Shown here: one piece after another, positions 5,676-64,000 of the stretch
Numbering within the stretch: the first letter of the stretch is position 1
Layout of the letters: each line of letters starts with the position of its first letter
NCBI GenBank assembly: GCA_040954595.2
Contig: CM082580.2
Location: forward strand, 1,354,783 to 1,418,782
Direction: 5' to 3'
Origin: Balanoglossus misakiensis
Lineage: Eukaryota; Animalia; Hemichordata
DNA: 64,000 bases
The notes under the pieces: generated by a model
The model's database searches: none
Told to the model about the DNA's origin: nothing
The model's input: only the letters and a program-made list of their open reading frames with translations
Program-made: the position numbers and the translations under genes

Positions 5676-8600
5676 TTTTGAGATTTTGCAAATTCGAAAA
5701 TTTGTCATTTTTTGATGATTTTCACCCATGATTTTTTTCAAAAATCGACGAAATTTTGAGATTTTGCAAAGTCGAAAATTTGTCATTTTTTGATTATTTT
5801 CACCCATGATTTTTTTCAAAAATCGACAAAATTTTTAGATTTTGCAAAGTCGACAATTTGTCATTTTTTGATGATTTTCACCATGATTTTTTTTTAAAAA
5901 ATGACGAAATTTTGAGATTTTGCAAAGACGAAAATTTGTAATTTTTTGATGATTTTCACCCATGATTTTTTTTCAAAAATGTACGAAATTTTGAGATTTT
6001 GCAAAGTCGAAAATTTGTAATTTTTTGATGATTTTCACCCATGATTTTTTTCAAAAATCGACGAAATTTGAGATTTTGCAAAGTCGAAAATTTGTCATTT
6101 TTTGATGATTTTCACCCATGTTTTTTTTCAAAAATCTACGAAATTTTGAGATTTTGCAAAGTCGAAAATTTGTCATTTTTTGATGATTTTCACCCATGAT
6201 TTTTTTCAAAAATCGACAAAATTTTTAGATTTTGCAAAGTCGAAAATTTGTAATTTTTTGATGATTTTTACCCATGATTTTTTTTTTTCAAAAATCGACG
6301 AAATTTTGAGATTTTGCAAAGACGAAAATTTGTAATTTTTTGATGATTTTCACCCATGACTTTTTTTCAAAAATTTACGAAATTTTGAGATTTTGCAAAG
6401 TCGAAAATTTGTCATTTTTTGATGATTTTCACCCATGATTTTTCTCAAAAATCGACGAAATTTTGAGATTTTGCAAAGTCGAAAATTTGTAATTTTTTGA
6501 TGATTTTCACCCATGATTTTTTTTCAAAAATCAACGAACCCATGATTTTTTTTCAAAAATCGACAAAATTTTGAGATTTTGCAAAGTCGAAAATTTGTCA
6601 TTTTTTGATGATTTTCACCCATGATTTTTCTCAAAAATCGACGAAATTTTGAGATTTTGCAAAGTCGAAAATTTGTAATTTTTTGATGATTTTCACCCAT
6701 GATTTTTTTTCAAAAATCGACGAAATTTTGAGATTTTGCAATGTCGAAAATTTGTCATTTATTAATGATTTTCACCCATGATTTTTTTTCAAAAATCGAC
6801 AAATTTTTGAGATTTTGCAAAGTCGAAAATTTGTAATTTTTTGATGATTTTCACCCATGTTTTTTTTCAAAATTGAACGAACCCATGATTTTTTTCAAAA
6901 ATCGACGAAATTTTGAGATTTTGCAAAGTCGAAAATTTGTCATTTTTTGATGATTTTCACCCATGATTTTTTTCAAAAATCGACAAAATTTTGAGATTTT
7001 GCAAAGTCGAAAATTTGTAATTTTTTGATGATTTTTACCCATGATTTTTTTTTTCAAAAATCGACGAAATTTTGAGATTTTGCAAATTCGAAAATTTGTA
7101 ATTTTTTGATGATTTTCACCCTTTTTTTTTTCAAAAATCAACGAACCCATGATTTTTTTTCAAAAATCTACGAAATTTTGAGATTTTGCAAAGTCGAAAA
7201 TTTGTCATTTTTTGATGATTTTCACCCATGATTTTTTTCAAAAATCGACAAAATTTTTAGATTTTGCAAAGTCGAAAATTTGTAATTTTTTGATGATTTT
7301 TACCCATGATTTTTTTTTTCAAAAATCGACGAAATTTTGAGATTTTGCAAAGACGAAAATTTGTAATTTTTTGATGATTTTCACCCATATTTTTTTTCAA
7401 AATTGAACGAACCCATGATTTTTTTCAAAAATCGACGAAATTTTGAGATTTTGCAAAGTCGAAAATTTGTCATTTTTTGATGATTTTCACCCATGATTTT
7501 TTTCAAAAATCGACGAAATTTTGAGATTTTGCAAAGTCGAAAATGTGTCATTTTTTGATGATTTTCACCCATGATTTTTTTCAAAAATCGACAAAATTTT
7601 GAGATTTTGCAAATTCGAAAATTTGTAATTTTTTGATGATTTTCACCCATGTTTTTTTTCAAAAATCAACGAACCCATGATTTTTTTTCAAAAATCGACA
7701 AAATTTTGAGATTTTGCAAAGTCGAAAATTTGTCATTTTTTGATGATTTTCACCCATGATTTTTCTCAAAAATCGACGAAATTTTGCAAAGTCGAAAATT
7801 TGTAATTTTTTGATGATTTTCACCCATGATTTTTTTTCAAAAATCGACGAAATTTTGAGATTTTGCAAAGTCGAAAATTTGTCATTTATTAATGATTTTC
7901 ACCCATGATTTTTTTTCAAAAATCGACAAAATTTTGAGATTTTGCAAAGTCGAAAATTTGTCATTTTTTGATGATTTTCACCCATGATTTTTTTCAAAAA
8001 TCGACGAAATTGTGAGATTTTGCAAAGTCAAAAATTTGTCATTTTTTGATGATTTTCACCCATGTTTTTTTTTAAAAAATCGACGAACCTATGATATTTT
8101 TCAAAATCGACGAAATTTTGAGATTTTGCAAAGTCGAAAATTTGTAATTTTTTGATGATTTTCACCCATGATTTTTTTCAAAAATTGACGAAATTTTTAG
8201 ATTTTGCAAAGTCGAAAATTTGTCATTTTTTGATGATTTTCACCCATGATTTTTTTTCAAAAATCGACGAAATGTTGAGATTTTGCAAAGTCGAAAATTT
8301 GTAATTTTTTGATGATTTTCACCCATGATTTTTTTCAAAAATCGACGAAATTGTGAGATTTTGCAAAGTCGATAATTTGTCATTTTTTGATGATTTTCCC
8401 CCAATATTTTTTTTCAAAATCGACGAAATTTTGAGATTTTGCAAAGTCGAAAATTTGTCATTTTTTGATGATTTTCACCCATGATTTTTTTCAAAAATCG
8501 ACGAAATTTTGAGATTTTGCAAAGTCGAAAATTTGTCATTTTTTGATTATTTTCACCCATGATTTTTTTCAAAAATCGACAAAATTTTTAGATTTTGCAA

Positions 8601-11600
8601 AGTCGACAATTTGTCATTTTTTGATGATTTTCACCATGATTTTTTTTTAAAAAATGACGAAATTTTGAGATTTTGCAAAGACGAAAATTTGTAATTTTTT
8701 GATGATTTTCACCCATGATTTTTTTTCAAAAATGTACGAAATTTTGAGATTTTGCAAAGTCGAAAATTTGTCATTTTTTGATGATTTTCACCCATGATTT
8801 TTTTCAAAAATCGACGAAATTTGAGATTTTGCAAAGTCGAAAATTTGTCATTTTTTGATGATTTTCACCCGTTTTTTTTCAAAAATCTACGAAATTTTGA
8901 GATTTTGCAAAGTCGAAAATTTGTCATTTTTTGATGATTTTCACCCATGATTTTTTTCAAAAATCGACAAAATTTTTAGATTTTGCAAAGTCGAAAATTT
9001 GTAATTTTTTGATGATTTTTACCCATGATTTTTTTTTTTCAAAAATCGACGAAATTTTGAGATTTTGCAAAGACGAAAATTTGTAATTTTTTGATGATTT
9101 TCACCCATGACTTTTTTTCAAAAATTTACGAAATTTTGAGATTTTGCAAAGTCGAAAATTTGTCATTTTTTGATGATTTTCACCCATGATTTTTCTCAAA
9201 AATCGACGAAATTTTGAGATTTTGCAAAGTCGAAAATTTGTAATTTTTTGATGATTTTCACCCATGATTTTTTTTCAAAAATCAACGAACCCATGATTTT
9301 TTTTCAAAAATCGACAAAATTTTGAGATTTTGCAAAGTCGAAAATTTGTCATTTTTTGATGATTTTCACCCATGATTTTTCTCAAAAATCGACGAAATTT
9401 TGAGATTTTGCAAAGTCGAAAATTTGTAATTTTTTGATGATTTTCACCCATGATTTTTTTTCAAAAATCGACGAAATTTTGAGATTTTGCAATGTCGAAA
9501 ATTTGTCATTTATTAATGATTTTCACCCATGATTTTTTTTCAAAAATCGACAAATTTTTGAGATTTTGCAAAGTCGAAAATTTGTAATTTTTTGATGATT
9601 TTCACCCATGTTTTTTTTCAAAATTGAACGATCCCATGATTTTTTTCAAAAATCGACGAAATTTTGAGATTTTGCAAAGTCGAAAATTTGTCATTTTTTG
9701 ATGATTTTCACCCATGATTTTTTTCAAAAATCGACAAAATTTTTAGATTTTGCAAAGTCGAAAATTTGTAATTTTTTGATGATTTTTACCCATGATTTTT
9801 TTTTTCAAAAATCGACGAAATTTTGAGATTTTGCAAATTCGAAAATTTGTAATTTTTTGATGATTTTCACCTTTTTTTTTCAAAAATCAACGAACCCATG
9901 ATTTTTTTTCAAAAATCTACGAAATTTTGAGATTTTGCAAAGTCGAAAATTTGTCATTTTTTGATGATTTTCACCCATGATTTTTTTCAAAAATCGACAA
10001 AATTTTTAGATTTTGCAAAGTCGAAAATTTGTAATTTTTTGATGATTTTTACCCATGATTTTTTTTTTCAAAAATCGACGAAATTTTGAGATTTTGCAAA
10101 GACGAAAATTTGTAATTTTTTGATGATTTTCACCCATATTTTTTTTCAAAATTGAACGAACCCATGATTTTTTTCAAAAATCGACGAAATTTTGAGATTT
10201 TGCAAAGTCGAAAATTTGTCATTTTTTGATGATTTTCACCCATGATTTTTTTCAAAAATCGACAAAATTTTTAGATTTTGCAAAGTCGAAAATTTGTAAT
10301 TTTTTGATGATTTTTACCCATGATTTTTTTTTTTCAAAAATCGACGAAATTTTGAGATTTTGCAAAGACGAAAATTTGTAATTTTTTGATGATTTTCACC
10401 CATGACTTTTTTTCAAAAATTTACGAAATTTTGAGATTTTGCAAAGTCGAAAATTTGTCATTTTTTGATGATTTTCACCCATGATTTTTCTCAAAAATCG
10501 ACGAAATTTTGAGATTTTGCAAAGTCGAAAATTTGTAATTTTTTGATGATTTTCACCCATGATTTTTTTTCAAAAATCAACGAACCCATGATTTTTTTTC
10601 AAAAATCGACAAAATTTTGAGATTTTGCAAAGTCGAAAATTTGTCATTTTTTGATGATTTTCACCCATGATTTTTCTCAAAAATCGACGAAATTTTGAGA
10701 TTTTGCAAAGTCGAAAATTTGTAATTTTTTGATGATTTTCACCCATGATTTTTTTTCAAAAATCGACGAAATTTTGAGATTTTGCAATGTCGAAAATTTG
10801 TCATTTATTAATGATTTTCACCCATGATTTTTTTTCAAAAATCGACAAATTTTTGAGATTTTGCAAAGTCGAAAATTTGTAATTTTTTGATGATTTTCAC
10901 CCATGTTTTTTTTCAAAATTGAACGATCCCATGATTTTTTTCAAAAATCGACGAAATTTTGAGATTTTGCAAAGTCGAAAATTTGTCATTTTTTGATGAT
11001 TTTCACCCATGATTTTTTTCAAAAATCGACAAAATTTTTAGATTTTGCAAAGTCGAAAATTTGTAATTTTTTGATGATTTTTACCCATGATTTTTTTTTT
11101 CAAAAATCGACGAAATTTTGAGATTTTGCAAATTCGAAAATTTGTAATTTTTTGATGATTTTCACCTTTTTTTTTCAAAAATCAACGAACCCATGATTTT
11201 TTTTCAAAAATCTACGAAATTTTGAGATTTTGCAAAGTCGAAAATTTGTCATTTTTTGATGATTTTCACCCATGATTTTTTTCAAAAATCGACAAAATTT
11301 TTAGATTTTGCAAAGTCGAAAATTTGTAATTTTTTGATGATTTTTACCCATGATTTTTTTTTTCAAAAATCGACGAAATTTTGAGATTTTGCAAAGACGA
11401 AAATTTGTAATTTTTTGATGATTTTCACCCATATTTTTTTTCAAAATTGAACGAACCCATGATTTTTTTCAAAAATCGACGAAATTTTGAGATTTTGCAA
11501 AGTCGAAAATTTGTCATTTTTTGATGATTTTCACCCATGATTTTTTTCAAAAATCGACGAAATTTTGAGATTTTGCAAAGTCGAAAATGTGTCATTTTTT

Positions 11601-14600
11601 GATGATTTTCACCCATGATTTTTTTCAAAAATCGACAAAATTTTGAGATTTTGCAAATTCGAAAATTTGTAATTTTTTGATGATTTTCACCCATGTTTTT
11701 TTTCAAAAATCAACGAACCCATGATTTTTTTTCAAAAATCGACAAAATTTTGAGATTTTGCAAAGTCGAAAATTTGTAATTTTTTGATGATTTTCACCAT
11801 GATTTTTTTTTAAAAAATGACGAAATTTTGAGATTTTGCAAAGACGAAAATTTGTAATTTTTTGATGATTTTCACCCATGATTTTTTTTCAAAAATGTAC
11901 GAAATTTTGAGATTTTGCAAAGTCGAAAATTTGTCATTTTTTGATGATTTTCACCCATGATTTTTTTCAAAAATCGACGAAATTTGAGATTTTGCAAAGT
12001 CGAAAATTTGTCATTTTTTGATGATTTTCACCCGTTTTTTTTCAAAAATCTACGAAATTTTGAGATTTTGCAAAGTCGAAAATTTGTCATTTTTTGATGA
12101 TTTTCACCCATGATTTTTTTCAAAAATCGACAAAATTTTTAGATTTTGCAAAGTCGAAAATTTGTAATTTTTTGATGATTTTTACCCATGATTTTTTTTT
12201 TTCAAAAATCGACGAAATTTTGAGATTTTGCAAAGACGAAAATTTGTAATTTTTTGATGATTTTCACCCATGACTTTTTTTCAAAAATTTACGAAATTTT
12301 GAGATTTTGCAAAGTCGAAAATTTGTCATTTTTTGATGATTTTCACCCATGATTTTTCTCAAAAATCGACGAAATTTTGAGATTTTGCAAAGTCGAAAAT
12401 TTGTAATTTTTTGATGATTTTCACCCATGATTTTTTTTCAAAAATCAACGAACCCATGATTTTTTTTCAAAAATCGACAAAATTTTGAGATTTTGCAAAG
12501 TCGAAAATTTGTCATTTTTTGATGATTTTCACCCATGATTTTTCTCAAAAATCGACGAAATTTTGAGATTTTGCAAAGTCGAAAATTTGTAATTTTTTGA
12601 TGATTTTCACCCATGATTTTTTTTCAAAAATCGACGAAATTTTGAGATTTTGCAATGTCGAAAATTTGTCATTTATTAATGATTTTCACCCATGATTTTT
12701 TTTCAAAAATCGACAAATTTTTGAGATTTTGCAAAGTCGAAAATTTGTAATTTTTTGATGATTTTCACCCATGTTTTTTTTCAAAATTGAACGATCCCAT
12801 GATTTTTTTCAAAAATCGACGAAATTTTGAGATTTTGCAAAGTCGAAAATTTGTCATTTTTTGATGATTTTCACCCATGATTTTTTTCAAAAATCGACAA
12901 AATTTTTAGATTTTGCAAAGTCGAAAATTTGTAATTTTTTGATGATTTTTACCCATGATTTTTTTTTTCAAAAATCGACGAAATTTTGAGATTTTGCAAA
13001 TTCGAAAATTTGTAATTTTTTGATGATTTTCACCTTTTTTTTTCAAAAATCAACGAACCCATGATTTTTTTTCAAAAATCTACGAAATTTTGAGATTTTG
13101 CAAAGTCGAAAATTTGTCATTTTTTGATGATTTTCACCCATGATTTTTTTCAAAAATCGACAAAATTTTTAGATTTTGCAAAGTCGAAAATTTGTAATTT
13201 TTTGATGATTTTTACCCATGATTTTTTTTTTCAAAAATCGACGAAATTTTGAGATTTTGCAAAGACGAAAATTTGTAATTTTTTGATGATTTTCACCCAT
13301 ATTTTTTTTCAAAATTGAACGAACCCATGATTTTTTTCAAAAATCGACGAAATTTTGAGATTTTGCAAAGTCGAAAATTTGTCATTTTTTGATGATTTTC
13401 ACCCATGATTTTTTTCAAAAATCGACAAAATTTTTAGATTTTGCAAAGTCGAAAATTTGTAATTTTTTGATGATTTTTACCCATGATTTTTTTTTTTCAA
13501 AAATCGACGAAATTTTGAGATTTTGCAAAGACGAAAATTTGTAATTTTTTGATGATTTTCACCCATGACTTTTTTTCAAAAATTTACGAAATTTTGAGAT
13601 TTTGCAAAGTCGAAAATTTGTCATTTTTTGATGATTTTCACCCATGATTTTTCTCAAAAATCGACGAAATTTTGAGATTTTGCAAAGTCGAAAATTTGTA
13701 ATTTTTTGATGATTTTCACCCATGATTTTTTTTCAAAAATCAACGAACCCATGATTTTTTTTCAAAAATCGACAAAATTTTGAGATTTTGCAAAGTCGAA
13801 AATTTGTCATTTTTTGATGATTTTCACCCATGATTTTTCTCAAAAATCGACGAAATTTTGAGATTTTGCAAAGTCGAAAATTTGTAATTTTTTGATGATT
13901 TTCACCCATGATTTTTTTTCAAAAATCGACGAAATTTTGAGATTTTGCAATGTCGAAAATTTGTCATTTATTAATGATTTTCACCCATGATTTTTTTTCA
14001 AAAATCGACAAATTTTTGAGATTTTGCAAAGTCGAAAATTTGTAATTTTTTGATGATTTTCACCCATGTTTTTTTTCAAAATTGAACGATCCCATGATTT
14101 TTTTCAAAAATCGACGAAATTTTGAGATTTTGCAAAGTCGAAAATTTGTCATTTTTTGATGATTTTCACCCATGATTTTTTTCAAAAATCGACAAAATTT
14201 TTAGATTTTGCAAAGTCGAAAATTTGTAATTTTTTGATGATTTTTACCCATGATTTTTTTTTTCAAAAATCGACGAAATTTTGAGATTTTGCAAATTCGA
14301 AAATTTGTAATTTTTTGATGATTTTCACCTTTTTTTTTCAAAAATCAACGAACCCATGATTTTTTTTCAAAAATCTACGAAATTTTGAGATTTTGCAAAG
14401 TCGAAAATTTGTCATTTTTTGATGATTTTCACCCATGATTTTTTTCAAAAATCGACAAAATTTTTAGATTTTGCAAAGTCGAAAATTTGTAATTTTTTGA
14501 TGATTTTTACCCATGATTTTTTTTTTCAAAAATCGACGAAATTTTGAGATTTTGCAAAGACGAAAATTTGTAATTTTTTGATGATTTTCACCCATATTTT

Positions 14601-45158: not shown

Positions 45159-46020
45159 TAGTGTGGTATGATGTGTATTCCCGTAGGATTTTTGTGCTAA
45201 AATTGATTTTTTTGCTGTTTTGGCTTCTACGGGGACCCAACTACCCGAAAATGATGGGGTGCAATTTTAAGGGCCCCTCCATCATATTTTTCTGGGGGGG
45301 GGGGTACTTCCGTTTTGTGGTATGATGTGTATTCCCGTAGGATTTTTCTGCTAAAATTGATTTTTTTTGCTGTTTGGCTTCAATGGGGACCCAACTACCC
45401 AAAAATCATGGGGTGCAATTTTTAGGGCCCCTCCATCAATTTTTTTCGGGGGGTCTCTTCTGTTTTGGTCACTCGAGGATATTTGTTCACCTATTTACTC
45501 TATCATCATGGGAATTTGGGCTACAATTAATTTGTTTTTGTTGTGTTTGCTTTGGAGGAGACCAACCTGGCCAAAAATAATCGGGTGCAAATTATAGGGC
45601 CCCTCCATCATTTTTTATTTGGGGGGGGGGGGCACTTCCATTTTGGCCACTCCGAAGTTGTTTGTTGGCCTATTTACTCCCTTCTCATAGAATATTTTGC
45701 TAAAAATATTATTTTTCTTTGATGTTTTGGTTTCAATGGGGCTCCACCAGAACTAAAATGATGGGGTTCAAATTTTTGGAACCTTCCATCATGTCTTGGG
45801 GGGGGGGAGGGTAATCATTTCTGTTTTGGCCACCCTGAAGATACTTATTCACCTATTTACTATACGGTTAGTATTGTCGTGGTATTTCTTGCAATTTGGT
45901 TTGCTCCTTTGGCTTGAATGCAGACTGACTGCCGAAAAGTGATGGTGTGCAAAATGTTGGACCCCTTTACCACATTTTTTGGTGGGGGGGGGGGGGGTTC
46001 TCTATATTTGTTTTCGCCAA
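45159..46020 (+). repeat. Left long terminal inverted region made of ~5 sub-repeats (~155-185 bp) with poly-G tracts
   Basis: GTGGTATGATGTGTATTCCCGTAGGATTTTT...GGGCCCCTCCATCA...(G)n repeats at ~45163 and ~45318 and decays inward. The inner boundary is approximate. Confidence 0.85.
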
Positions 46021-46294
46021 CCCGTTGTAACAGTAGTTTTTTTTTATCTTAGATTTTTTCGTTTATTCTAAATTTAGTATACTAAGGTAAATTAAAACTC
46101 CTTTATATATAATAAAGTACATAATGTGTATTTTAGTTTATTTTCCGAGCTACAGTCCCATCTCATAAAATGGACCCTTGAGGCACCCTCCCTACCACGG
46201 ACGGTGCAATAAACAACCCAAGAAGCATAACGATTCTTTTCTGATATCTTGGTATTCTCAATCATCATTTTCACGAAACCCAGTTCTGTTTGAT

Positions 46295-46590
46295 CTACTC
46301 ATCGCCAGTGTCGTTATCTTCAAGAACATTTCCCCCTGGTTTTCAGTCTCCACCATAGCATTTGCAGAGGGGAGTACATAGTAAATCATTCTTTGAGCAA
46401 CTGCAACGTCCCCTACAACCTGCTTTGCAGCCACATTTGATAAGCTCTAGTACTGCCTTTGGTGCAGGGAGAGCAAGACATTTTACTGGATAAAACACGC
46501 CATTCTCCGATTTCCACCCATTCTTTTTGATTGGGGGAAGTTCAGGACAATTTGTTGCGTATGATTTATCTCTCATTGTGATGAAGGGGT
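46295..46590 (-). pseudogene. C-terminal fragment of an Academ-type transposon protein (tesmin/CXC-like Cys-rich domain)
   Basis: Translation ELPPIKKNGWKSENGVFYPVKCLALPAPKAVLELIKCGCKAGCRGRCSCSKNDLLCTPLCKCYGGD*. The TGA at 46343-46345 sits where a final Cys is expected, and the frame continues KPGGNVLEDNDTGDE* to 46295. Confidence 0.8.
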
Positions 46591-47494
46591 GGCACCCTTT
46601 TCACAGATCACGCAAATCTTATTTTTATCTACATATTAATTCTGTAGTTTATTGCAAAATGTCCTAATAGCTATCGAACTGGAACGTAAAACGCTGCTTA
46701 CGGTGCTAAGAAAATAGCCAATATGTATTTAGTAATAAAACTGAGATGTAGTTCACAGACTTGTTTTATTTTCAGTAGTATTGAGCTACAAAATGAGCCA
46801 AATTTGATATTGTTAATGTTTACCAAAACAAGTTTTAGAAGTAAGACATAGTTCAAGGGCTTTTTACAGCACTATTTTGCTATTGGCATGAAAATTTTGA
46901 AAATACTACTTTAAAATAGACAATACTTCAACTGATATGGCTTTATTTACGACAGTATTTAACTTTGAAATGAGTTCAACTGAATATCGTTTTAATACCC
47001 CAAAAAACAAGTGTTGATTAAAACGTACTTCAGAGTTTATGCACAGACTTATATCGATGAGAATTTTAGTACAATGGTAAATATCTCAGACATTGATTGT
47101 GCTACGAAAGAATAAACAACTCTTAACGAAAAAGTTACCAGAATCATATGCATATGATTCTGGTAACTCACGGCCCCTCGGGTGTAATAAACGGCTGCTA
47201 TGGCCCTCATGGCCAGGCAATAGGTGTTCACTATTTGGTATAGCCTAGTATACTATATTTTTGTAAACCATAGAAAACATGAGTGTGGTGATGAGTTGGG
47301 TGGCGGTCCAAGGTGAGGGGAGGTATATTATGCTAAGTCCAAACCAGAGAGATATTTGTGGTTGATTTGTTAGTGTCAAAATTCAACTAAGTATATTTAT
47401 AAAAATAAGATAGCGCTGTAGTATATATGACAACTGATACAAATGTAGGTAACTGATATGTTTACCCATAAACCGTCTAATATTTAAGATTCCC

Positions 47495-48310
47495 AATATG
47501 TGGAGAGGCCCTAAAATTTGACCTCATTTTTGAGCAGTTAGGTCCCCATAGAAGTTAAAAAAAAAGAAATTGGAAGAAATCCTTTACAAATACACATGTC
47601 ACACTATGAACAAATATCTCCAGGGCTGCTAAAACTAAAGTGACCCCCCCCCCCCCCCCTGCAAGAAAATGTGATGGAGGGGTCCAACAAATTGATTTCC
47701 ATCATTTTGGGGATGTTTATTCATCATTGAAACCAAAACAGCAAACAAAACAAATAACTATTAGCAAAAACTCCTACGAGAATACACGGTATAGGTGAAC
47801 AAATACCGTTAAGATTGTCGGAATGTAAGTGCCCCCCCCCCCCCACAAATGTAATAGAGGGGCCCTAAAATTTGCATGTGATCTTTTGTGACCAGGTGTC
47901 AAAACAGCAAAAAAAAAATTCTTTAGCAGAAAATTCTACGAAAATGGAGTAGATAGGTGAATAAATATCTTCGGGGAGGCCAAAACAGGAGTGACGACCC
48001 CCCCCCCGAAAAAATATGATGGAGGGGCCCTAAAAATTGCACCCCATCATTTTCGGGTAGTTGGGTCCCCATAGAAGCCAAAACAGCAAAAAAATCAATT
48101 TTAGCACAAAAATCCTACGGGAATACACATCATACCACAAAACGGAAGTACCCCCCCCCCCCCGAGAAAAATATGATGGAGGGGCCCTTAAAATTTCACC
48201 CCATCATTTTCGGGTAGTTGGGTCCCAATAGAAGCCAAAACAGCAAAAAAATCAATTTTAGCACAACAATCCTACGGGAGCTGTTTTTCATGACATACCA
48301 TACCGCACTA
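47495..48310 (-). repeat. Right long terminal inverted region with poly-C tracts (mirror of 45159-46020)
   Basis: GATGGAGGGGCCCT..AAAT..CACCCCATCATTTTCGGGTAGTTGGGTCCC..AGAAGCCAAAACAGC is the reverse complement of the left sub-repeats. The inner boundary is approximate. Confidence 0.85.
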
Positions 48311-54944: not shown

Positions 54945-55872
54945 TAGCCTGGAGACCAGGGCGTCGGGGAAAAGAAACGCCCGGGGACAGTCTCTATTTA
55001 CGAACAGAATTCTGTTCGTAGAACGACACGTGTGGTAAATCTTGCGTGTAAGCTAATTGGTCACTCAATGTTAACCACATGACATCGTCGCCTTCTAAAT
55101 AAGGAAATAGAGGTGGAGTCATGTGTGAAATTCCCGCGATGGGATGTGGGAGTGGTTTTGAAAGTGTATGAATATTCATAACCAAGCTTTGTTAAAGGCA
55201 CGTAAGGTGTAACTTTTGGGATAATTTTCATAATTTTTGTTTCAAACTGCACTACCATTAGTCCATGCAGATGGAGGTAGTGAACAATACACAAGCATTA
55301 TAAACCCTAAGTATGAGTGCATATGCAAGTTTTAACCAGATAAATAATAAAGCTTTGCCGCAAGCGATTATGGCCGCCACCGTGGGAAAATGCAAGAAAC
55401 AATGAAAATGTTGCATTTCCGGTTGTGAAACTTCATAAACAAAACATGATCTCATCCACTTGAGCTCATGGAAGTAAATGTACACCACTGAGACATCAGA
55501 TTTTCATTTTTCACTGCAATATTGCGCTTTTTTTAAAATTGCAGGAATTTTCGTTTTTCTTTAATTTTTGGCCATTTTGTCATAAATAAGTGTTGAGCTT
55601 GATATATTATCATGAAATAGCATTTAATAGACATAATTAAAAGCATATATGAGATTATTTAAAACTTTAATTTTTTATCCAGTTACAGCTTACGTGCCTT
55701 TAATTATATCATCCAACCACTGGCGCCCGTCAACATTTGATAGATCACTCGTTATCCATTTGTTACTAAGCGACCTCGATCGTTGCCAAGACTACTATCT
55801 TTCAGCTCAGCAGGACTTGCTCGACTGTCCCCGAGCGTTGTATTTTAGATCGACGCCCTGGTCTCCCGGCTA
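54945..55872. mobile_element. 928-bp non-autonomous DNA transposon with 9-bp TSD (AcademH-like; Mutator-like is the alternative)
   Basis: ~50-bp TIRs: TAGCCTGGAGACCAGGGCGTCG..AACGCCCGGGGACAGTC versus TAGCCGGGAGACCAGGGCGTCG..AACGCTCGGGGACAGTC. Perfect TSD AGATTGTCA at 54936-54944 and 55873-55881. Confidence 0.88.
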
Positions 55873-56366
55873 AGATTGTCAATATATACGCCGCATGTTG
55901 CCAGCCAGGGCCCCGACTGACATTCCCTCTGAATATACACACCCCTCTATTGAAAATGGAACATTCCTGCAAGCAAAGCATGTTGTACTTGCTTACATCA
56001 GCTGTAGTGACTTGTGTAGACCCCCAGCGCGCGGCCTCTACTGTCTGTATATGGTCTGTCACAGTCCCCGGGAGTAACTGTCATGACAGAAATCGGTTTG
56101 TCAACGGCAAAACGGAGATAAGGTGTTTTTTCCGAATATAGAATATTCAATTCTGTTTGATTCGGTCATGCCCAAAGTGTGCGTAGCTGTCGTCCTCTGA
56201 CAACGCTCGCTCATATTTCATGCGGAGAACTTAAGTAGGTTCAAGCCAAGTTTTAATAGTTGGGCTAAGGTCTTCCCTGATAAGTGTTGAAATGTTTGGG
56301 GTGTTACTGTCCGGGCTGTAACGACTTGGGTCGTGGAAAATGGGGGCTGAAACGACTGGGGCCGAA

Positions 56367-56422
56367 AGGGTCAGAGTGCCGGAACGACCTGTTTAAACAT
56401 GTCGTTCCAGCACTATGACCCT
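56367..56422. repeat. 56-bp near-perfect palindrome centred on TTTAAA
   Basis: AGGGTCAGAGTGCCGGAACGAC-CTGTTTAAACAT-GTCGTTCCAGCACTATGACCCT. The outer arms match 20/22. Short GGGC(C/T)GAAA sub-repeats precede it. Confidence 0.8.
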
Positions 56423-57374
56423 AAAGTGTTACCTAAGATAGTGTCCAGCGTCTAGCCGTTATTGAAATTATAGACCCTGCAGCGAGACTGAGCATGATTT
56501 GTTGTTGTCATGAAACTCATCTCGTACTCCAGTCACTTTCATACAAAACGGCTATGAGTGTCCAATGGTCTTTGTTGAGACTGTTTGACATTGAATGGCA
56601 TTGACCTCGCGGGAGGATATCCTTCATGAATACAATGCAGGATATAATTTACATTGGCAAAGGGCTTTGAGGTGCACCAAATTAGTAATTTAGACACACC
56701 TTAATTATTACATGCCACCCCAAACTTTTTTAAAGCAAGAAACAAAATTGCAGTGCTTTTCCAATGACGCTTTTTAAAATGTAGAATCAGATTGTTTTCT
56801 TGTCGCTCAGGTGTCCAAAATAAATATAGCTGTGATCAATTCCTACTTAAAGCAAACAAAAGTAAATTGAGTTGAATGGGCACGTCCGGCCCATATTTGA
56901 CCCATTTCACATTTTTTCTTTCTTAGGCTGCATTCACAAACACCTCTGGAGGGGGGGGGGGGGAATTCATCTTTTACCGCTAATTTTCACATGCCCCCCC
57001 CCCCCCTTTCACAACCCGAAATATTTTGAAATCCCCCTTCCGAACTGCCAAAATTTTGAAATCCCCCCATTTTCTTTCACAGAGCAAAACTCATAACTCT
57101 GCTCAAGCGCTCCCATGAAAAGAATTTGAAACTGATGTTTCCCCTCATCAGTGGGTATTAAAACTGAACATTGTTTTTATTTTTTAAGTATTTTGTATGA
57201 TTATAATTAAAAAATATACAACTTAGCTAAAATGCTTAGATGAGTTAATCAGATTTTCAAAGTCCACCTAAAAGATCATTTAATCTTTCCAGGGTGCGGT
57301 TTATGTTGGAGATAGTATCAGTTAGGCTATTTCTCAGAAAATCAATGAACGATCTGCGGACACCCCGAATAATA

Positions 57375-57766
57375 TGTTACCACAACGCTAGCCAGGAAGC
57401 ACATGGGACATTTCACAATGAGGCAGTGAACACTGGGGGGACCAGACTGACACGTTAACCAATCAGGGAGCTGTATGGTGAATAAATACATATTAATAAG
57501 ACCTAACCTACAAGGTCCTGCATAATGAGGCAGTGAACACTGGAGGACCAGACCTACACATTAACCAATCAGGGAGCTGTAAAGTGAATAATGCATTGTA
57601 ATAAGACCTAACCTACAAGGTCTGGTGAATAATACATAGTAATAAGACCTAACACATAAGGTCCCTCCAATCAGCGAGCCGCAAGTGGACCTTAGAGAAG
57701 TGGATAAACCAATCAGAACATGTAATACGTGTGCATAGGACCTGTAATGTAGGTCATTTTGAAACA
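57375..57766. mobile_element. Possible LTR or LTR fragment abutting the gypsy pol relic
   Basis: Begins TGTTAC and ends GAAACA. Contains four CCAATCAG boxes and an internal tandem repeat. No TSD or polypurine tract was found, and orientation is unresolved. Confidence 0.35.
57417..57664. repeat. Tandem duplication, 2 x ~107 bp plus a partial third copy
   Basis: AATGAGGCAGTGAACACTGG occurs at 57417 and 57524. TAATAAGACCTAAC occurs three times. Confidence 0.9.
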
Positions 57767-57769
57767 GGA

Positions 57770-59781
57770 CTAGTTCACCATGACCAACCACATGACCCAG
57801 GAAATCGATCTGCTCATAACCCACATAACACTTAGTTGGTCTCGCTGTTAACTTTGCCTTTCGTAGTCTGCTCATCAAATCTGTAATTGTCTTGATATGT
57901 TCTTCCCATGATGCAGTGTGGATCAGTATGTGATCGATATAGTTGTCTACGTTCTTCATATCTCTTAACAATCTTCTCATAATTCTGCTAAAAGTCGCAG
58001 CACTATTTACAAGTCCGAAAGGCATTTTGATAAATTGGTATAGCCCATCATGCGTGATAAATGCCGTCAATTGTTTAGAATTATCAGTCAACGGGACTTG
58101 CCAATATTCTTTGCTGAGATCTACTTTAGTGAAATAGTGATCCTTGGATAACTTAGCAAAAAGCAAAAAGCTCACTCAGGTCTGGTGTAGGCTCTGCATC
58201 AAACACTGTTATGCGATTGAGCTTTCTCATGTCAACACAACAACGATTGGACCCATCAGATTTCTTCACCATTACCAGTGGAACAGCATATGGACTCTCT
58301 GAAGGTTCAGCTACTCCCATCTTAATCATCGTTTTGACTTCATCTTTCACTGCTTCACGGAGTGCATGAGGGATGGGGTATGGCCTACTGCATACTGGTG
58401 TTGGATCCATCAACTTGATGTCATGGAAACCCAGGTTGGTGTTACCACGAATATCAGTTAACATATCTTTGTAATTGATCAGCAACCTCCTCACCACTTG
58501 CTTCTGTATGTCTGACAAGTTGTCACATACATTCACATCTGCAGCAAATTCTTTCTGCTTGAATGCAGGAACCCGCAGTAAGTCATCGTTTACTTTAACC
58601 CCTGTGTTCTCTTGTACTTCTGAAGATTCATAACTCTGCTCATCTATCACAGATACACACACAATCTCAAGAAGTCCAGCTGATACTTCATCTAGCTGAT
58701 CAGTTCTTCGATAGTACCTCTTCAACAGGTTGGCATGGAATGTTTTCACCCTATGACCAAAGTCAATCTTGTAATCCATATTGCTCGCTTTCTCCACCAC
58801 TGGAAAAGGACCCTTCCAGTGCATAAGTAGTTTATTATGGTCAGTAGGTAGTAGCAATAACACCTCGTCACCTTTGTTGAACTTCCTCCATTTGGCCTTT
58901 CTATTGTAGTAGGACTTGTATTTGCCTTGTGATATCTTCAGTTCTTGTCTTGCTAAATCGCATGCCTTCTTTAATTTCTTTTGAAGATCAAGGATGTATT
59001 GATAAGTCGTTTTGGTTTCTGGTTCACTGATCTCTCCAGTCCATAGTTCTTTCAAGATAGCCATTGGACCACGCACACTCCTCCCATAAAGTAACTCAAA
59101 CGGAGAGAATCCTGTGCTCGATTGAGGCGTTTCTCTGTAGGCAAATAGTAAAGCATTCAGATAACGATCCCAATATGTTGGACGTTCCTCACACATCTTC
59201 CTGAGCATGAGTTTCAATGTACCATTGAACCGTTCCACTAGACCATTGAATGCTGGGTGGTATGGGGTGGTAGTCATCTGCTTTATAGACAAAAGCCGGC
59301 TGACCTCACGCATCACATCTGATGTAAATTGAGTTCCTTGATCTGTCAGAATTTCACGTGGACACCCCACTCTTGAGTAGATGTCCAGGAGCGCCTCTGC
59401 AACAGTCTTGGTATCAATGTTAGTCAATGCAACAGCCTCCGGATAGCGTGTTGCATAATCAACAACAGTAAGTATGTACCTATTCTTGCGTTCAGTGCAT
59501 GGATGAATAGGGCCAACCAGGTCTACTGCAATACGTAGGAAAGGGATATCTATTAGTGGCATACTTCCAAGTGGTACCTTGGTCACCCGTCCCTTTGGTT
59601 GTGTCCGTTGACATGAATCACAGGACTGACAGTAACGGGAAACATCTGATGTTAGCCCAGGCCAAACGAAGTTGCTGAGGATCTTGTCTGTGGTCTTGTG
59701 AGTTCCGTGGTGACCACCCAGCACTGATTCATGGGCTAGTCTCATCACCTGGTTACGATACACTCTGGGAACCACCACCTG
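57770..59781 (-). pseudogene. pol: Truncated Ty3/gypsy pol with integrase upstream of reverse transcriptase (Gmr1-like order)
   Basis: Integrase: HHCC (AHESVLGGHHG..CDSC), DDE (IAVDLVGP, ILTDQG, GLVERFN) and GPF motif. A gypsy-type RT follows in frame (RPYPIP, SPYAVPLVMVKKSDGSNRCCVDMRKLN, then DLSKEYWQ, MPFGL, YIDH, FLGH). A 7-bp duplication at 58155-58168 shifts the frame. RNase H is absent. Confidence 0.93.
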
Positions 59782-59911
59782 TCACTACAGCTTGAACGAC
59801 GCCACCTATGGGCAGTATTTCCGTGGCAGCCTATGAAGCTCATGAATATTTAATTAGACACAGTAATGGCGTTCGCGATCGAACACAGCTGTCGATGCAC
59901 AGCATAATTCG

Positions 59912-60615
59912 GTGAGTAATATTGCTTTATTCCAAGTTTTGTTTAGTAAAATTAGCAAGATGTCAGAGACAATATGAAATAAAGTTGCGATTCTGCTGTG
60001 TTATTTATGTGTATCAGCCAAATAACTTGAACATTTTGATCACCCGCTGACAGTCCCTGGCCGTTGCTATAGCAGAAGCCGTCCTAAGCAACCATAAACA
60101 AACACTAAAAATTACAACGATTCAGCTTCACAGAATTGTTTTTTTCAATTTGAAAACCATACGAATTTAGTCTTTTATACGTAAACATAGGATTCCATGT
60201 TTAAAATGCTGCTACAAGCAATATGACGAAATCATACCAAGCGAAAATATACGACCCTGTGTGTTCCTTGGCAGCAGCACGGGTTACATTGATTGTAATG
60301 GCGGCGCTTCGAATTTTCGGCGACATGGTGATATTGTTCATAGAATTGACAGAAAATAAGACCGTAACTGAAAAATCAGAAACCAATAGTTTGTGCTAAA
60401 ATATATTCTTGATATAATTCGCTGGAAATTCGAGGGTGAAAACGAAATAAGAAAAAAATGAATGGGCGAGATTGTTATGGTAAGGTTACCCACATTCTTT
60501 CTATGTCACCTTTGACCTCAATTTCTGGAGGAAGTATAATGAGCAGGTGTTTTGTTTTTGCTTCCCTCGGATAGATAATTATTGTAAAGATATTTCTCTT
60601 GTTCACCCTTTTCAG
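59912..60615 (+). other. Predicted 5'-UTR intron of the transposase-like gene
   Basis: Donor G|GTGAGT at 59912. Pyrimidine tract plus TTTTCAG| at 60615, 16 nt before gccATG (60632). Pairing of the two sites is inferred. Confidence 0.45.
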
Positions 60616-60631
60616 GTATAGATTTAGAGCC

Positions 60632-61075
60632 ATGTGGGGCAAACTATTCAACAGGAGTAGCGCACTTCTTAAAAGTTTGTCTATTGTTATGCCGAATAGA
60701 AAAGGGAAAAGTTACTTCAACATAGGCCAGTGGGCAAAGGACCAAAAGATAGCGAGACAGGTAGCTGAAGAGAAGTGTTTACAACAACTATATCAGGAGA
60801 AATTGAAGACTAGATCTTTGTCTGGGAGCGTGGCCAACAACCTATTGGTAGTTAGAACAAAGAGAGGACAGACTAAACACAGGTTTAACTTAGGAGAGTG
60901 GTGTAGACAGAGAAAGAGAAAGAGAGATGAGGAAGAAAGCATAATTCAGGATAAGTTGAATAAGTTGAGTGCAGCTAGGAGACTAGTAAAAAGATCCTCA
61001 ACCCAGCTAGCTAGACTAGAGAAGAAGAACAGTAAGATTTGTGAGATCTTAGCTACAAAGAATAATAAGAGAAAG
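60632..61075 (+). CDS. Coding exon 1 (148 aa, basic/helical N-terminus) of the RAG1/Transib-like protein
   Basis: MWGKLFNRSS...NNKRK ends in AAG|GTAAG (phase 0). It splices in frame to the acceptor TCTTTCAG| at 61428. Contains an NLS-like RKRKR. Confidence 0.7.
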
Positions 61076-61428
61076 GTAAGCTAGATCAGATAAATAGACT
61101 TAGTCATAATTTTAAAAATCTCAGATTTGTATAAATCCTCTTCAAATTTTAGCCCAAATTCGCTTTTTGAACTTCATGTCACATGATCCTGTGTAAACAA
61201 TGATAACAAAATGGGTTCAGCTTTGATGCAAAACATCTAGGTTTTCCAACAAACTATGTATATTTTTTAGGATTTTTATTGCAGAAGTTGTCAGAAAAAT
61301 ACAGGCTACACGTGTGTATTTCTTATCAAGGACATTTAAATTAATGATTAACTTGTAAGAAGATTTTATTTTATATATAATGATTATATTCTAATTAGTA
61401 TATATTTATCACACACTTAATCTTTCAG

Positions 61429-63669
61429 ATTCCTGTTGATGTTGTTAATGTGAAACGCTCTAAATGGGTCCACAAGAACACTGAAGTATGTGCAGATAAT
61501 AGTGAATCTTTGAAGCTGTCGCGACGTCAACAGTATGAACGTAGGTGTGAAACCTTATCAGCAGCCATAAATATTCATGTAGCAACTACAGATGTAAGCC
61601 CAGCCAAAGGTATAAATAAACCGAATGTACTACATCCACCAAAAGCAGCACTTGATGGTTTGTGGTATACTCTTGTTAATTCTGCCACTCCTGACCAAAT
61701 GAAAACATTCTTCAGAACCTCTCCCCAAATCAGTAAAAAAGTAATGCCATCAGTATTTGATAAATACATCAGTAAATTTGAGAAAAGTGAGAACAATTTG
61801 GTGAGGAGTGTCAGAACTATGTATGAGGGCGGAGTACTATCCAAACGAAAATATAACTGTCTGAGGCAGAGTGAACTTCAGATGTTCTCCAACTTGAAAC
61901 ATCCTAGGAAAGCAGTAGAAATTCATTCTGGCTGTAGAATACCAAGACTGCTCCCATACACAAAAGTTGTACAGTATGTAAGTAACCTTGACATTGGAAA
62001 TCTTGAGCCAATTATATCATCTGAAGGCAAACAAGTCGGCTTAAAAAGAAACCCTGAGGAGTTGCTTATTAAGATTGCCAGTTTATATTTAAATATGGGG
62101 GAAACACAGCCTGATATTCTTAACTGGTTCGGTAAACAGGAGGGCTCATTTCAAATCAGTATAGGTGCTGACGGGGCTCCGTTTGGCAAACATGGACAGG
62201 CCACTGCATGGCTAGTTAGTTTCTTGAATGTGACCCACCGTGTTGCTAGCCCAGACCACAATTTTCTCCTATTAGGGGCAAACATAAAAGAGGATGACCC
62301 CATAATGATTGAATTTGCAATTGCATTGTCAAAAGACCTTGAGTGTATTGAGAAACGTAAATATAAAGTTGGCAGTCTTGATGTAACTTTTCAGGTGTCA
62401 CTTTTACCCTTTGATCAGAAGGGATTGGCCAGTGTGTCTGGAGAACTAAGCAATGCAGCAAAGTATTTCAGCTCATTTGCTAACGTTCCAAAAATGATAT
62501 TGATTGTATTGGAGCAGAAATTGGCCCAGGTCAGAAGTGGGATGAATGGAAATATCAGAAAAGAATTAAAGATGCAGAAGCTGTTGAAAAGTTGAAGTCA
62601 ACTAAGAAAATTAAAACTGGAAAGCCCAAAACAGTGCGACCCAAAATCACACAATTTATAGCCAGTCTGAGGTCAAGACAGGAATTTGTACCACCGTTGG
62701 GTAGATTTATTGATTGTGCCAAGGCTGAGCCATTGCATTTAAAGAACAATGCATGGCAATACTACTTCCAACGATTACTGATTGACGCAGTTGCCCACAC
62801 TTCGGAAAAGGGTCGTGAAAATGGAGTTAAAATTGAGAATCTACCTAACGAGTCATATCTGTACAAATTCCTGTCTGCCCTAAAATATCAAGTAAAAGCT
62901 GGAAAGTTGTATAATAAGATTGTAAAATACTTCAATGAAAATAGTGTCAAGTCAAATGCCAACATTAATGTGGTTTATCGCTTCACTGGTGAGGAGTCTC
63001 GCAAACTTGCTTGGCATTTCATAGGATTGGTATTAGCATTGAGAAGCGATACAGACAGACCAAAGCGTCGGGCTCAATTAGCTCTCTACACATATACTGG
63101 TATCTTGCTTAGAGATATCACTTTGTTATTCTCACGATTCAACATAAATGAGGGAGATTTGCTTGTACTTAGGCATAAGTGTCGGTGGTACTTTAATCTA
63201 CATTCCCTGTTTCTGAATGTCAATAATACTGTGTGGCACATTGGTTATGTAGTCCCAAAACACACCACTAGTATCTATAAGCAATTCAGTCTGGGATTAG
63301 GCCTAAACACAATGGAAGGCAGAGAGGCAAAGCATCTACGCCTGCTAGAATTCAGTGAAAATTCTACACCTCAAAATAGGTGGGCCCTCATATTTCGACA
63401 CGAATATGTGATGCTTTTTTGGCTGAGGAACAAAAGTCCAAAAGCTGACAACTATAGAAATGCAAATGTAGGTCAATTTGAGCTTAAAGAAAAAGAAAAA
63501 TACATTCCCAGTCGATATTATGAGAATGCAGGCTACTGTATGTGTGGCAATTTAAAAAAATGAAACAATGACTGCCTGTGAAATATGTGTTGACCCAATT
63601 ATGGATGACATAAAAAAAGCAGCTGTCACTGGTAAAATATCAAATAAACTCAAGAAACTTATGCTGTGA
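61429..63669 (+). pseudogene. Coding exon 2 (~746 aa): RAG1/Transib-like DDE transposase core plus C-terminal Cys4 motif; two 1-bp frameshifts
   Basis: Motifs in order: LSKRKY (61837), IGADG (D 62170), PFDQK..GELSNAAKY (D 62413), EPLH (62727), FTGEESRKL (62982), MEGREAKH (E 63324). One base is missing at ~62487-62494 and there is one extra A in 63554-63560. The repaired end reads CMCG..CEICVDP..KKLML*. Confidence 0.72.
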
Positions 63670-63792
63670 ACAATGATTGAATTTGAAACAGTGGATTGTG
63701 TCACTGTGTGCTACTTTAGAATTAAAGGATAACTATAGTATTAATTACATTACAGAATTATAAAGACTCATCTGTAGTTGAGAGCTGCATTT

Positions 63793-63798
63793 AATAAA
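63793..63798 (+). terminator. Candidate polyadenylation signal AATAAA (a second lies at 63932-63937)
   Basis: Lies 124 nt after the repaired stop codon at 63669. The motif is common in AT-rich DNA. Confidence 0.35.
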
Positions 63799-64000
63799 AA
63801 TGGAGATCACAAATCACATGAATTCACACTTTTTGAACTGGAGATGATATGTTTCTTATGGGATTTTGTATATGTGTGCATGTATGGGGACAGGGAAATT
63901 GAAACTTATCTTACCACTATTAAGTATTGTGAATAAACCCTTAATCGTATAGTGATTGCAGTGCTTTGCAAAATTAAAATGTATGACATACATAAGCTTG

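Follow-up and report, generated by a model that had tools for sequence, protein, structure and literature searches.

The stretch of DNA analyzed here (hereafter, the window) comprises 64,000 nucleotides (nt) of the genome of the hemichordate Balanoglossus misakiensis (GenBank assembly GCA_040954595.2, contig CM082580.2, positions 1,354,783–1,418,782 of the forward strand) and contains, within its last 4 kb, at 60632–63669, a disrupted transposase gene. The gene is predicted to encode a protein of about 894 amino acids (aa) in two exons (444 and 2238 nt) that are separated by a GT-AG intron and interrupted by two opposite one-base frameshifts. The family to which it belongs combines a predicted RAG1/Transib-type fold with the loss of a Cys pair stated to be common to such enzymes, and its relatives outside the window are mobile elements that mostly carry a second gene. 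The closest homologue among the 76 matches listed is P0001, an intact Ptychodera flava (acorn worm) protein; the numbering of P0001 is used throughout, and residue counts refer to 324 aligned rows from 308 proteins. The features of the gene, all on the forward strand, are as follows.

60632–61075, forward strand: predicted exon 1, 148 codons in an open frame, with an alternative start Met at 60689
61076–61428, forward strand: predicted phase-0 GT-AG intron, 353 nt, with consensus donor (AG/GTAAGC) and acceptor (TTTCAG/)
61429–63669, forward strand: exon 2, transposase core and Cys-rich tail, collinear with P0001, with two frameshifts inside
62170–62172, forward strand: first catalytic Asp (D181; D in 260/263 rows)
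62290–62292, forward strand: conserved Glu (E221; E in 266/269 rows)
62413–62415, forward strand: second catalytic Asp (D262; D in 275/277 rows), without CxxC after it
62485–62494, forward strand: frameshift 1, a deficit of one base relative to the family frame (tblastn with P0001, reading frames, contigs)
62736–62738, forward strand: His of the LH motif (H370; H in 266/266 rows)
62979–62990, forward strand: RFTG motif with a nearly invariant Arg (R in 244/248 rows)
63234–63263, forward strand: putative W...P-x-H helix instead of the H(3-4)H zinc motif (W in 233/237 rows, H545 in 223/234)
63324–63326, forward strand: catalytic Glu (E566; E in 225/227 rows)
63537–63588, forward strand: C-terminal CxC...CxxC tail, crossed by frameshift 2 (four Cys in 206–208 of 207–211 rows)
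within 63537–63588, forward strand: frameshift 2, one base more, in the A7 run 63554–63560 (tblastn with P0001)
63793–63798, forward strand: AATAAA, possible polyadenylation signal judging from sequence alone; a second one at 63932

The stop-to-stop frames of the gene span 60575–61084, 61399–62595 and 62484–63563, followed by a short fourth piece at 63556–63669. A first-pass annotation, made from the sequence of the window, had joined the open reading frames (ORFs) through a phase-0 GT-AG intron and two single-base repairs, and this reconstruction is borne out by the frames, by the collinearity with P0001, and by the consensus splice ends. A tblastn search of the window with P0001 yields three collinear pieces (74%, 71%, and 58% identity), and the window protein is 74% identical to P0001 across 661 columns. 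The GC content of the predicted intron is 27%, compared to 39–40% in the exons. Support for exon 1 is modest: it contains two copies of a [RY]F[PN][IL]G[EQ]W-like motif, and a blastp comparison with 220 proteins revealed a weak likeness (E 0.09–0.4) to the N-termini of homologues from Lineus, Desmophyllum, and Owenia. The window-side RAG1-like motifs quoted in the first-pass annotation were all located in these frames, and the spacings given there, 81 aa between the two Asp residues and about 304 aa between the second Asp and the Glu, were recomputed as 81 and 304 codons, next to family medians of 81–82 and 301.

A profile built from 64 homologues retrieved 3,341 clusters at 50% identity (E ≤ 0.001, fragments included), with hosts among corals, anemones, ribbon worms, annelids, lancelet, and acorn worm. 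The named members, from Acropora, Porites, Desmophyllum, Actinia, Nematostella, Lineus, Owenia, Branchiostoma, and Ptychodera, are all annotated as uncharacterized, hypothetical or unnamed proteins. No precomputed Pfam domain is present on any of the listed homologues (two sets, of 76 and 120); Pfam scans of 64 and 25 members detected no transposase family, with SAP or C2H2 tails in a few; and, at E ≤ 0.1, none of the 64 members contained Transposase_21 or DUF1280. When the window frames and three family profiles were searched against Pfam and PDB, nothing relevant was retrieved; no relatives were detected among viral contigs, and no BFVD match was obtained at E ≤ 0.001. A name for the family was not found in Pfam, PDB or the literature searched, and neither was a description of it, in a search that covered subscription papers and Repbase Reports poorly. 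Four members (P0176, P0190, P0198, and P0216), including one from Branchiostoma belcheri, form a divergent subfamily with an extra C-terminal SAP domain and, in three of the four, a C2H2 finger.

The acidic D-E-D-E residues of the family (D181, E221, D262, and E566) are 98–99% conserved, with the three that the first-pass annotation had singled out, the two Asp and the C-terminal Glu, holding across the alignment, and H370 is invariant. E221 is likely to be the middle Glu of the DEDE tetrad of RAG1, which is named in PMC10629977. Kojima 2025 (PMC12730594), working with EnSpm, Chapaev, Mirage, and Transib sequences from Repbase, states that two motifs, C(2)C as well as H(3-4)H, are common to all of them. 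The family lacks the first of these: in none of 277 rows is the second Asp followed within 30 residues by a CxxC, none was found at that site in sets of 64 and 45, and the C(2)C positions are occupied by Ser/Thr and Ala/Gly. The absence of these cysteines had been overlooked in the first-pass annotation, as had the convergent second gene described below. The H(3-4)H pair is present in 77 of 234 rows and absent from the window copy, whereas Trp536 is nearly invariant (the register relative to RAG1 is approximate). From this, we infer that the core zinc site was lost in the family; the C-terminal CxC...CxxC tail likely binds zinc. Under the motif pairing of the first-pass annotation, the Arg of RFTG (R451) falls at what we take to be the position of R848 of RAG1, a lead rather than a result. 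According to PMC10629977, R848 suppresses transposition, and the residue is hydrophobic in invertebrate RAG1L.

The structure was modeled for P0001 as a stand-in for the window protein (pLDDT 92.1, pTM 0.89). In a Foldseek search, the model matched RAG1 first (E 1.5e-11), followed by HzTransib (4e-7), BbRAG1L (1.4e-6), and the P element transposase (2.9e-3). VIA comparison gave Z 22.7 for RAG1 (root-mean-square deviation (rmsd) 3.9 over 470 residues, 9% identity), 20.1 for HzTransib (rmsd 4.1 over 425 residues), 19.9 for BbRAG1L, 11.3 for the P element, and 6.0 for Hermes. The RAG1/Transib fold advanced in the first-pass annotation is thus recovered in the model. In the ESM Atlas, the family has clusters to itself, unnamed and mostly cnidarian (TM score 0.82–0.85), after which come RAG1 (0.63), a Transposase_21 cluster (0.62), Plavaka (0.59), and DUF1280 (0.58). 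The modeled fold belongs to the CACTA/Mirage/Chapaev/Transib (CMCT) group but not specifically beside RAG1, because CACTA, Plavaka, and DUF1280 models match about equally; the PDB ranking favors RAG1 partly because RAG1, BbRAG1L, and HzTransib are the sole CMCT members among the matches listed. A relationship to RAG1 could not be recovered by sequence or profile comparison: neither single sequences nor two profiles retrieved a RAG1 or Transib chain from PDB at E ≤ 10. The term ‘recombinase’ and the special closeness to RAG1 that it implied are not sustained, given the 9–12% identity to RAG1, HzTransib, and BbRAG1L in structural alignments, the lack of a profile match, and the tie with the CACTA-type models.

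The mobility of the relatives was assessed in a metagenome scan in which the best 80 of 206 confirmed stretches were used as loci (45 families at 85% DNA identity). Near-identical elements were found between different flanks, and the ends of these elements are inverted repeats, CACG[CG][CT][GT][GA]G, that is, CACG...CGTG. Among the short-read loci, a 3-bp duplication flanks 3 of 9 testable left-right pairs as opposed to 8 of 243 unpaired combinations (p about 0.003); in the same nine pairs, a 2-bp match occurs once, and matches of 4–6 bp do not occur. The clearest case is L081, where a complete 8,542-bp element (4241–12782) lies inside a 294-bp satellite, between two copies of ATA. Removal of this element together with 3 bp rebuilds neighboring satellite units, 2 exactly and 14 within 2 substitutions, whereas removal with 0, 1, 2, 4 or 5 bp rebuilds none. 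The 3-bp target duplication in the relatives is proven against these empty sites; the four duplications observed are ATA, GAT, TAG, and ATT. Relatives with terminal inverted repeats and target duplications, as envisaged in the first-pass annotation, were therefore found both among the metagenome loci and in L081. The L081 element contains an open transposase gene (742 codons) along with a second gene (251 aa). Its contig is assigned to an Anaerolineae metagenome-assembled genome and is the only match among prokaryote genomes; we rejected it as a bacterial member, given its location in a satellite array, and read it as probable mis-binned animal DNA.

Comparison with the published description of the CMCT clade (PMC12730594) shows a DDE (Asp-Asp-Glu) transposase with a RAG1/Transib-like fold in the P0001 model, and 5'-CA..TG-3' termini with a duplication within the 2–5-bp range in the relatives (the ends of the window element being unproven), but not the C(2)C after the second Asp. 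CAC..GTG ends and 3-bp duplications are hallmarks of EnSpm and Chapaev3 (PMC12730594, PMC4079192). With Chapaev and Chapaev3 the family shares, besides these two traits, the LH motif; it differs in having no C(2)C and in having H(4)H in only a third of the members, and no Chapa-type Cys/His pattern was seen in exon 1 of the window, the distinction being drawn from descriptions of those families. None of the four observed duplications fits TWA, the target duplication of Chapaev3 (PMC4079192). The similarity to EnSpm/CACTA, Plavaka, and DUF1280 lies in the Atlas scores (0.58–0.62) and, for EnSpm, in the ends and the 3-bp duplication, and the differences from this set are the lack of a Pfam match in 64 members, the missing zinc cysteines, and a convergent gene of the PF26709 family.

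The family might already be catalogued in Repbase or Dfam as EnSpm or Chapaev, which would leave the mechanism the same and lower the novelty. The CAC..GTG ends, the 3-bp duplications, the presence of well-curated genomes (Nematostella, Acropora, Branchiostoma) among the hosts, and the Atlas ties with Transposase_21 and DUF1280 all favor such an assignment. We nevertheless find it doubtful, considering that C(2)C, stated to be common to EnSpm, Chapaev, Mirage, and Transib (PMC12730594), is found in 0 of 277 rows, that neither Transposase_21 nor DUF1280 is detected in the 64 members and no precomputed Pfam domain in the listed homologues, and that the observed target sites differ from TWA. The placement in the first-pass annotation, a distant and possibly unclassified lineage of the CMCT group, stands as far as the fold, the acidic residues, the ends, the 3-bp duplication, and the failure to find a name are concerned; the part without support is the special closeness to RAG1.

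All 8 element families for which both ends were identified (L002, L003, the L007 group, the L043 group, L063, the L069 group, L075, and L081; elements of 4.2–8.5 kb) contain an ORF of 205–265 aa on the opposite strand, facing the transposase and starting 49–106 nt inside the right end. This second gene was identified in 13 of the 17 families with at least 1.5 kb of downstream sequence. The protein has 113 homologues, most with PF26709, a Pfam family of which the literature searched contains no mention. Across 15 families, pairwise identities of the second protein are correlated with those of the transposase (Mantel r 0.5, p 1e-4); this shows long co-residence, as linkage predicts, rather than interaction. 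The model of the second protein (pLDDT 87.5, pTM 0.69) consists of three long helices, forming a helical hairpin, and a small alpha/beta part; it has no PDB match at E ≤ 0.001, with the best Z values, 5.7 and 7.2, coming from the helical hairpin only, which does not amount to evidence of a new fold. A kelch propeller of the RAG2L type was considered and rejected on size and topology, the protein being too short and too helical. The second gene likely assists transposition. Pieces of it (100–340 bp) recur in inverted orientation near the left end in L043 (3128–3240), L002, L007, L063, L069, and L081, and the L043 group has a second, internal terminus; the inverted pieces could give rise to hairpin RNA against the second gene or could be relics of end duplication.

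The likeness to RAG1 and the RAG1L of ProtoRAG (PDB 5zdz, 6dbo, 6b40) extends over about 460–470 residues of the predicted core fold and includes the acidic tetrad, the CAC termini, the Cys-rich C-terminal tail, and, in the relatives, the convergent layout of two genes. The differences are a median distance of 301 between the second Asp and the Glu versus 253, a duplication of 3 bp versus 5 bp, no C(2)C, no clear sequence similarity to the RAG1 core, a CxC..CxxC tail as opposed to CCGHC in RAG1L, and a second protein predicted to be helical where RAG2L is a kelch-PHD protein. From Transib (HzTransib, PDB 6pqx), with which it shares the fold, DDE, and CAC ends, the family differs by the 3-bp duplication, the longer spacing, the lack of CxxC, and the second gene; in Transib, the second Asp and the Glu are 206–214 residues apart, an SxxCxxC motif is present, and the duplications are 5 bp long (PMC1131882), although some Transib relatives have 3-bp duplications, the length being reportedly labile (bioRxiv 2026.08.26.747230). 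That the family is a true RAGL branch near the ancestor of the V(D)J recombinase, with the second gene replacing RAG2L, would agree with RAG1 being the best fold match in PDB, with the convergent RAG1L and RAG2L of ProtoRAG (PMC9435367), and with the Cys-rich tail. The Arg at the presumed R848 position points the same way. We regard this origin as highly improbable: the identity of 9–12% is to be compared with >30% over about 600 aa between TransibSU and RAG1 (PMC4411706), profiles retrieve no RAG1 chain, the duplication, spacing, and missing C(2)C all differ, and CACTA-type models tie with RAG1.

As for the state of the window copy, it is most likely inactive, because frameshift 1 ends the frame at the stop that finishes at 62595, upstream of the catalytic Glu, and we classify it as a probable pseudogene. 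Alternatively, the gene could be intact and functional in the animal, domesticated or represented by live copies, with the breaks being assembly errors or peculiar to this copy. The two frameshifts account for all in-frame stops, the P. flava protein with 74% identity has four RefSeq accessions, break 2 falls in a homopolymer, and one X2 contig has an additional T after 62485, at break 1. Other contigs of the same sample, which is possibly the source, show the breaks: X1 record 3 crosses break 1 without a gap, and break 2 is likewise crossed gap-free, by X1 record 8 as well as by X2 record 14. With the relatives being mobile elements with ends and duplications, with satellite arrays and transposon debris around the gene, and with further diverged copies in the same runs, an intact gene appears improbable. 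At least two such diverged copies were found, one with a 700-bp skip. The depth of the X1 contigs is even, about 1,400–1,600, across 55.8–64 kb (a Ty3/Gypsy fragment along with the transposase), compared to 132 and 262 for the diverged copies, and small bubbles occur within 55837–64000, at 60138 and about 63058; this hints that the whole 55.8–64 kb segment is present in several near-identical copies, contig depth not being a copy number.

A quick tree of 60 rows, all of them family members (pattern scans for Chapaev3 and Transib references gave 0 stretches), joins the window copy to P0001 (SH-aLRT 100); the two belong to a 40-row group (SH-aLRT 87) that holds 15 of the 16 second-gene loci and one locus without the gene. 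A possible boundary of the element lies upstream of exon 1.

59783–59792, forward strand: candidate left terminus CACTACAGCT (also CACTACAG), unproven, beginning with CAC

This candidate coincides with the point where two stops terminate the integrase frame of the Ty3/Gypsy fragment, and is located 1,847 nt upstream of the position corresponding to the start of P0001, the range in the relatives being 849–3,275 nt. Downstream, no matching right end was found within the window, and no homologue of the second gene was detected in the 64 kb. The right ends of the relatives are mostly located 0.9–3.6 kb beyond the transposase, so the right end of the window element and any second gene would lie past 64000. 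Two potential counterparts of the left end were rejected: a 10-bp inverted match at 56000–56009, which points away from the gene and adjoins no second-gene homology, and CACTGTG at about 63702, which precedes the AATAAA signals and is much nearer to the stop than the right ends of the relatives.

The rest of the window, up to about 51 kb, is mostly satellite DNA (the satellites together span 1–51100): a 133-bp satellite at 1–5676 gives way to an AT-rich one of 78/106 bp, organized in higher-order repeats, whose orientation flips near 44.1–44.3 kb. A 3.15-kb insertion in the satellite (45159–48310) has TAG...CTA ends, an ACT duplication, no long ORF, and long inverted arms built of 150–180-bp subrepeats; its ends and duplication resemble those of non-autonomous Academ elements. 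High-copy repeats, identified by contig depth, are located at 55000–55900 and 56950–57770. The Ty3/Gypsy fragment (57561–59782, reverse strand), which is interrupted near 57.6–57.8 kb by high-copy repeats and ends abruptly at 59782, encodes the integrase upstream of the reverse transcriptase (Pfam), an order seen in Gmr1-like elements.

Taken together, these observations make it quite probable that the window contains a twice-frameshifted, likely inactive transposase copy whose complete relatives are two-gene DNA transposons with CAC...GTG ends and 3-bp duplications, and with a DDE transposase of predicted RAG1/Transib-type fold without the core zinc cysteines. Several points weigh against this interpretation. 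The window itself shows no terminus pair, duplication or second gene, and its candidate left end is unlike the CACG[CG][CT][GT][GA]G of the relatives; the fold was modeled for P0001 rather than for the window protein; and the tree was built by a quick method, with the 40-row group not starred. Among the relatives, 6 of the 9 short-read pairs have no duplication, although contigs with one flank in common and the other different (L069/L072, L043/L047, and L008/L009) suggest chimeric assembly behind some of these misses. Finally, no second gene was found in L033 and L052, with 6.1 and 3.0 kb of downstream sequence, respectively, or within 1.5–1.8 kb downstream in L014 and L039, and the named homologues of the second gene come solely from Acropora.

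Under the preferred interpretation, a mobile element now inactivated in the window, the transposase would bind both element ends and excise the element, probably through nicks and hairpins of the kind made by RAG and HzTransib, judging from the fold only, and the excised ends would then be joined to the target with a 3-nt stagger. The zinc site would be replaced by the hydrophobic, near-invariant Trp, together with Ser/Ala at the Cys positions, and end binding might fall to the Cys4 tail, as it does to CCGHC in invertebrate RAG1L. The second protein could be an accessory factor, either a partner of the transposase or an end-binding regulator, encoded in the tail-to-tail position of RAG2L, to which it appears unrelated in size and predicted shape. 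The window element would extend beyond 64000.

A broader scenario can be put forward tentatively. Among RAG1-fold transposons, the family might represent a branch at the level of a superfamily that has so far gone undescribed, is abundant in marine invertebrates, and discarded the ‘universal’ core zinc site; its PF26709 partner, with a fold without a match, would have been recruited independently in the same tail-to-tail arrangement as RAG2 and would bind and activate the transposase; and these elements would transpose despite an Arg where Arg848 blocks transposition by vertebrate RAG1. The data do not place the family any nearer to RAG1 than CACTA. It does break the stated rule that C(2)C is present in all CACTA/Mirage/Chapaev/Transib/RAG1 enzymes, and, by pairing a RAG1-fold transposase tail-to-tail with a partner gene, it provides a second example from nature that is relevant to the manner of and the reasons for the recruitment of RAG2. 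Tests of the partner gene and the Arg position by transposition in cells are made practical by complete elements whose frames are open, such as L081. More generally, these transposons provide a likely context for the orphan Pfam family PF26709 and for thousands of ‘uncharacterized’ proteins of corals and worms.

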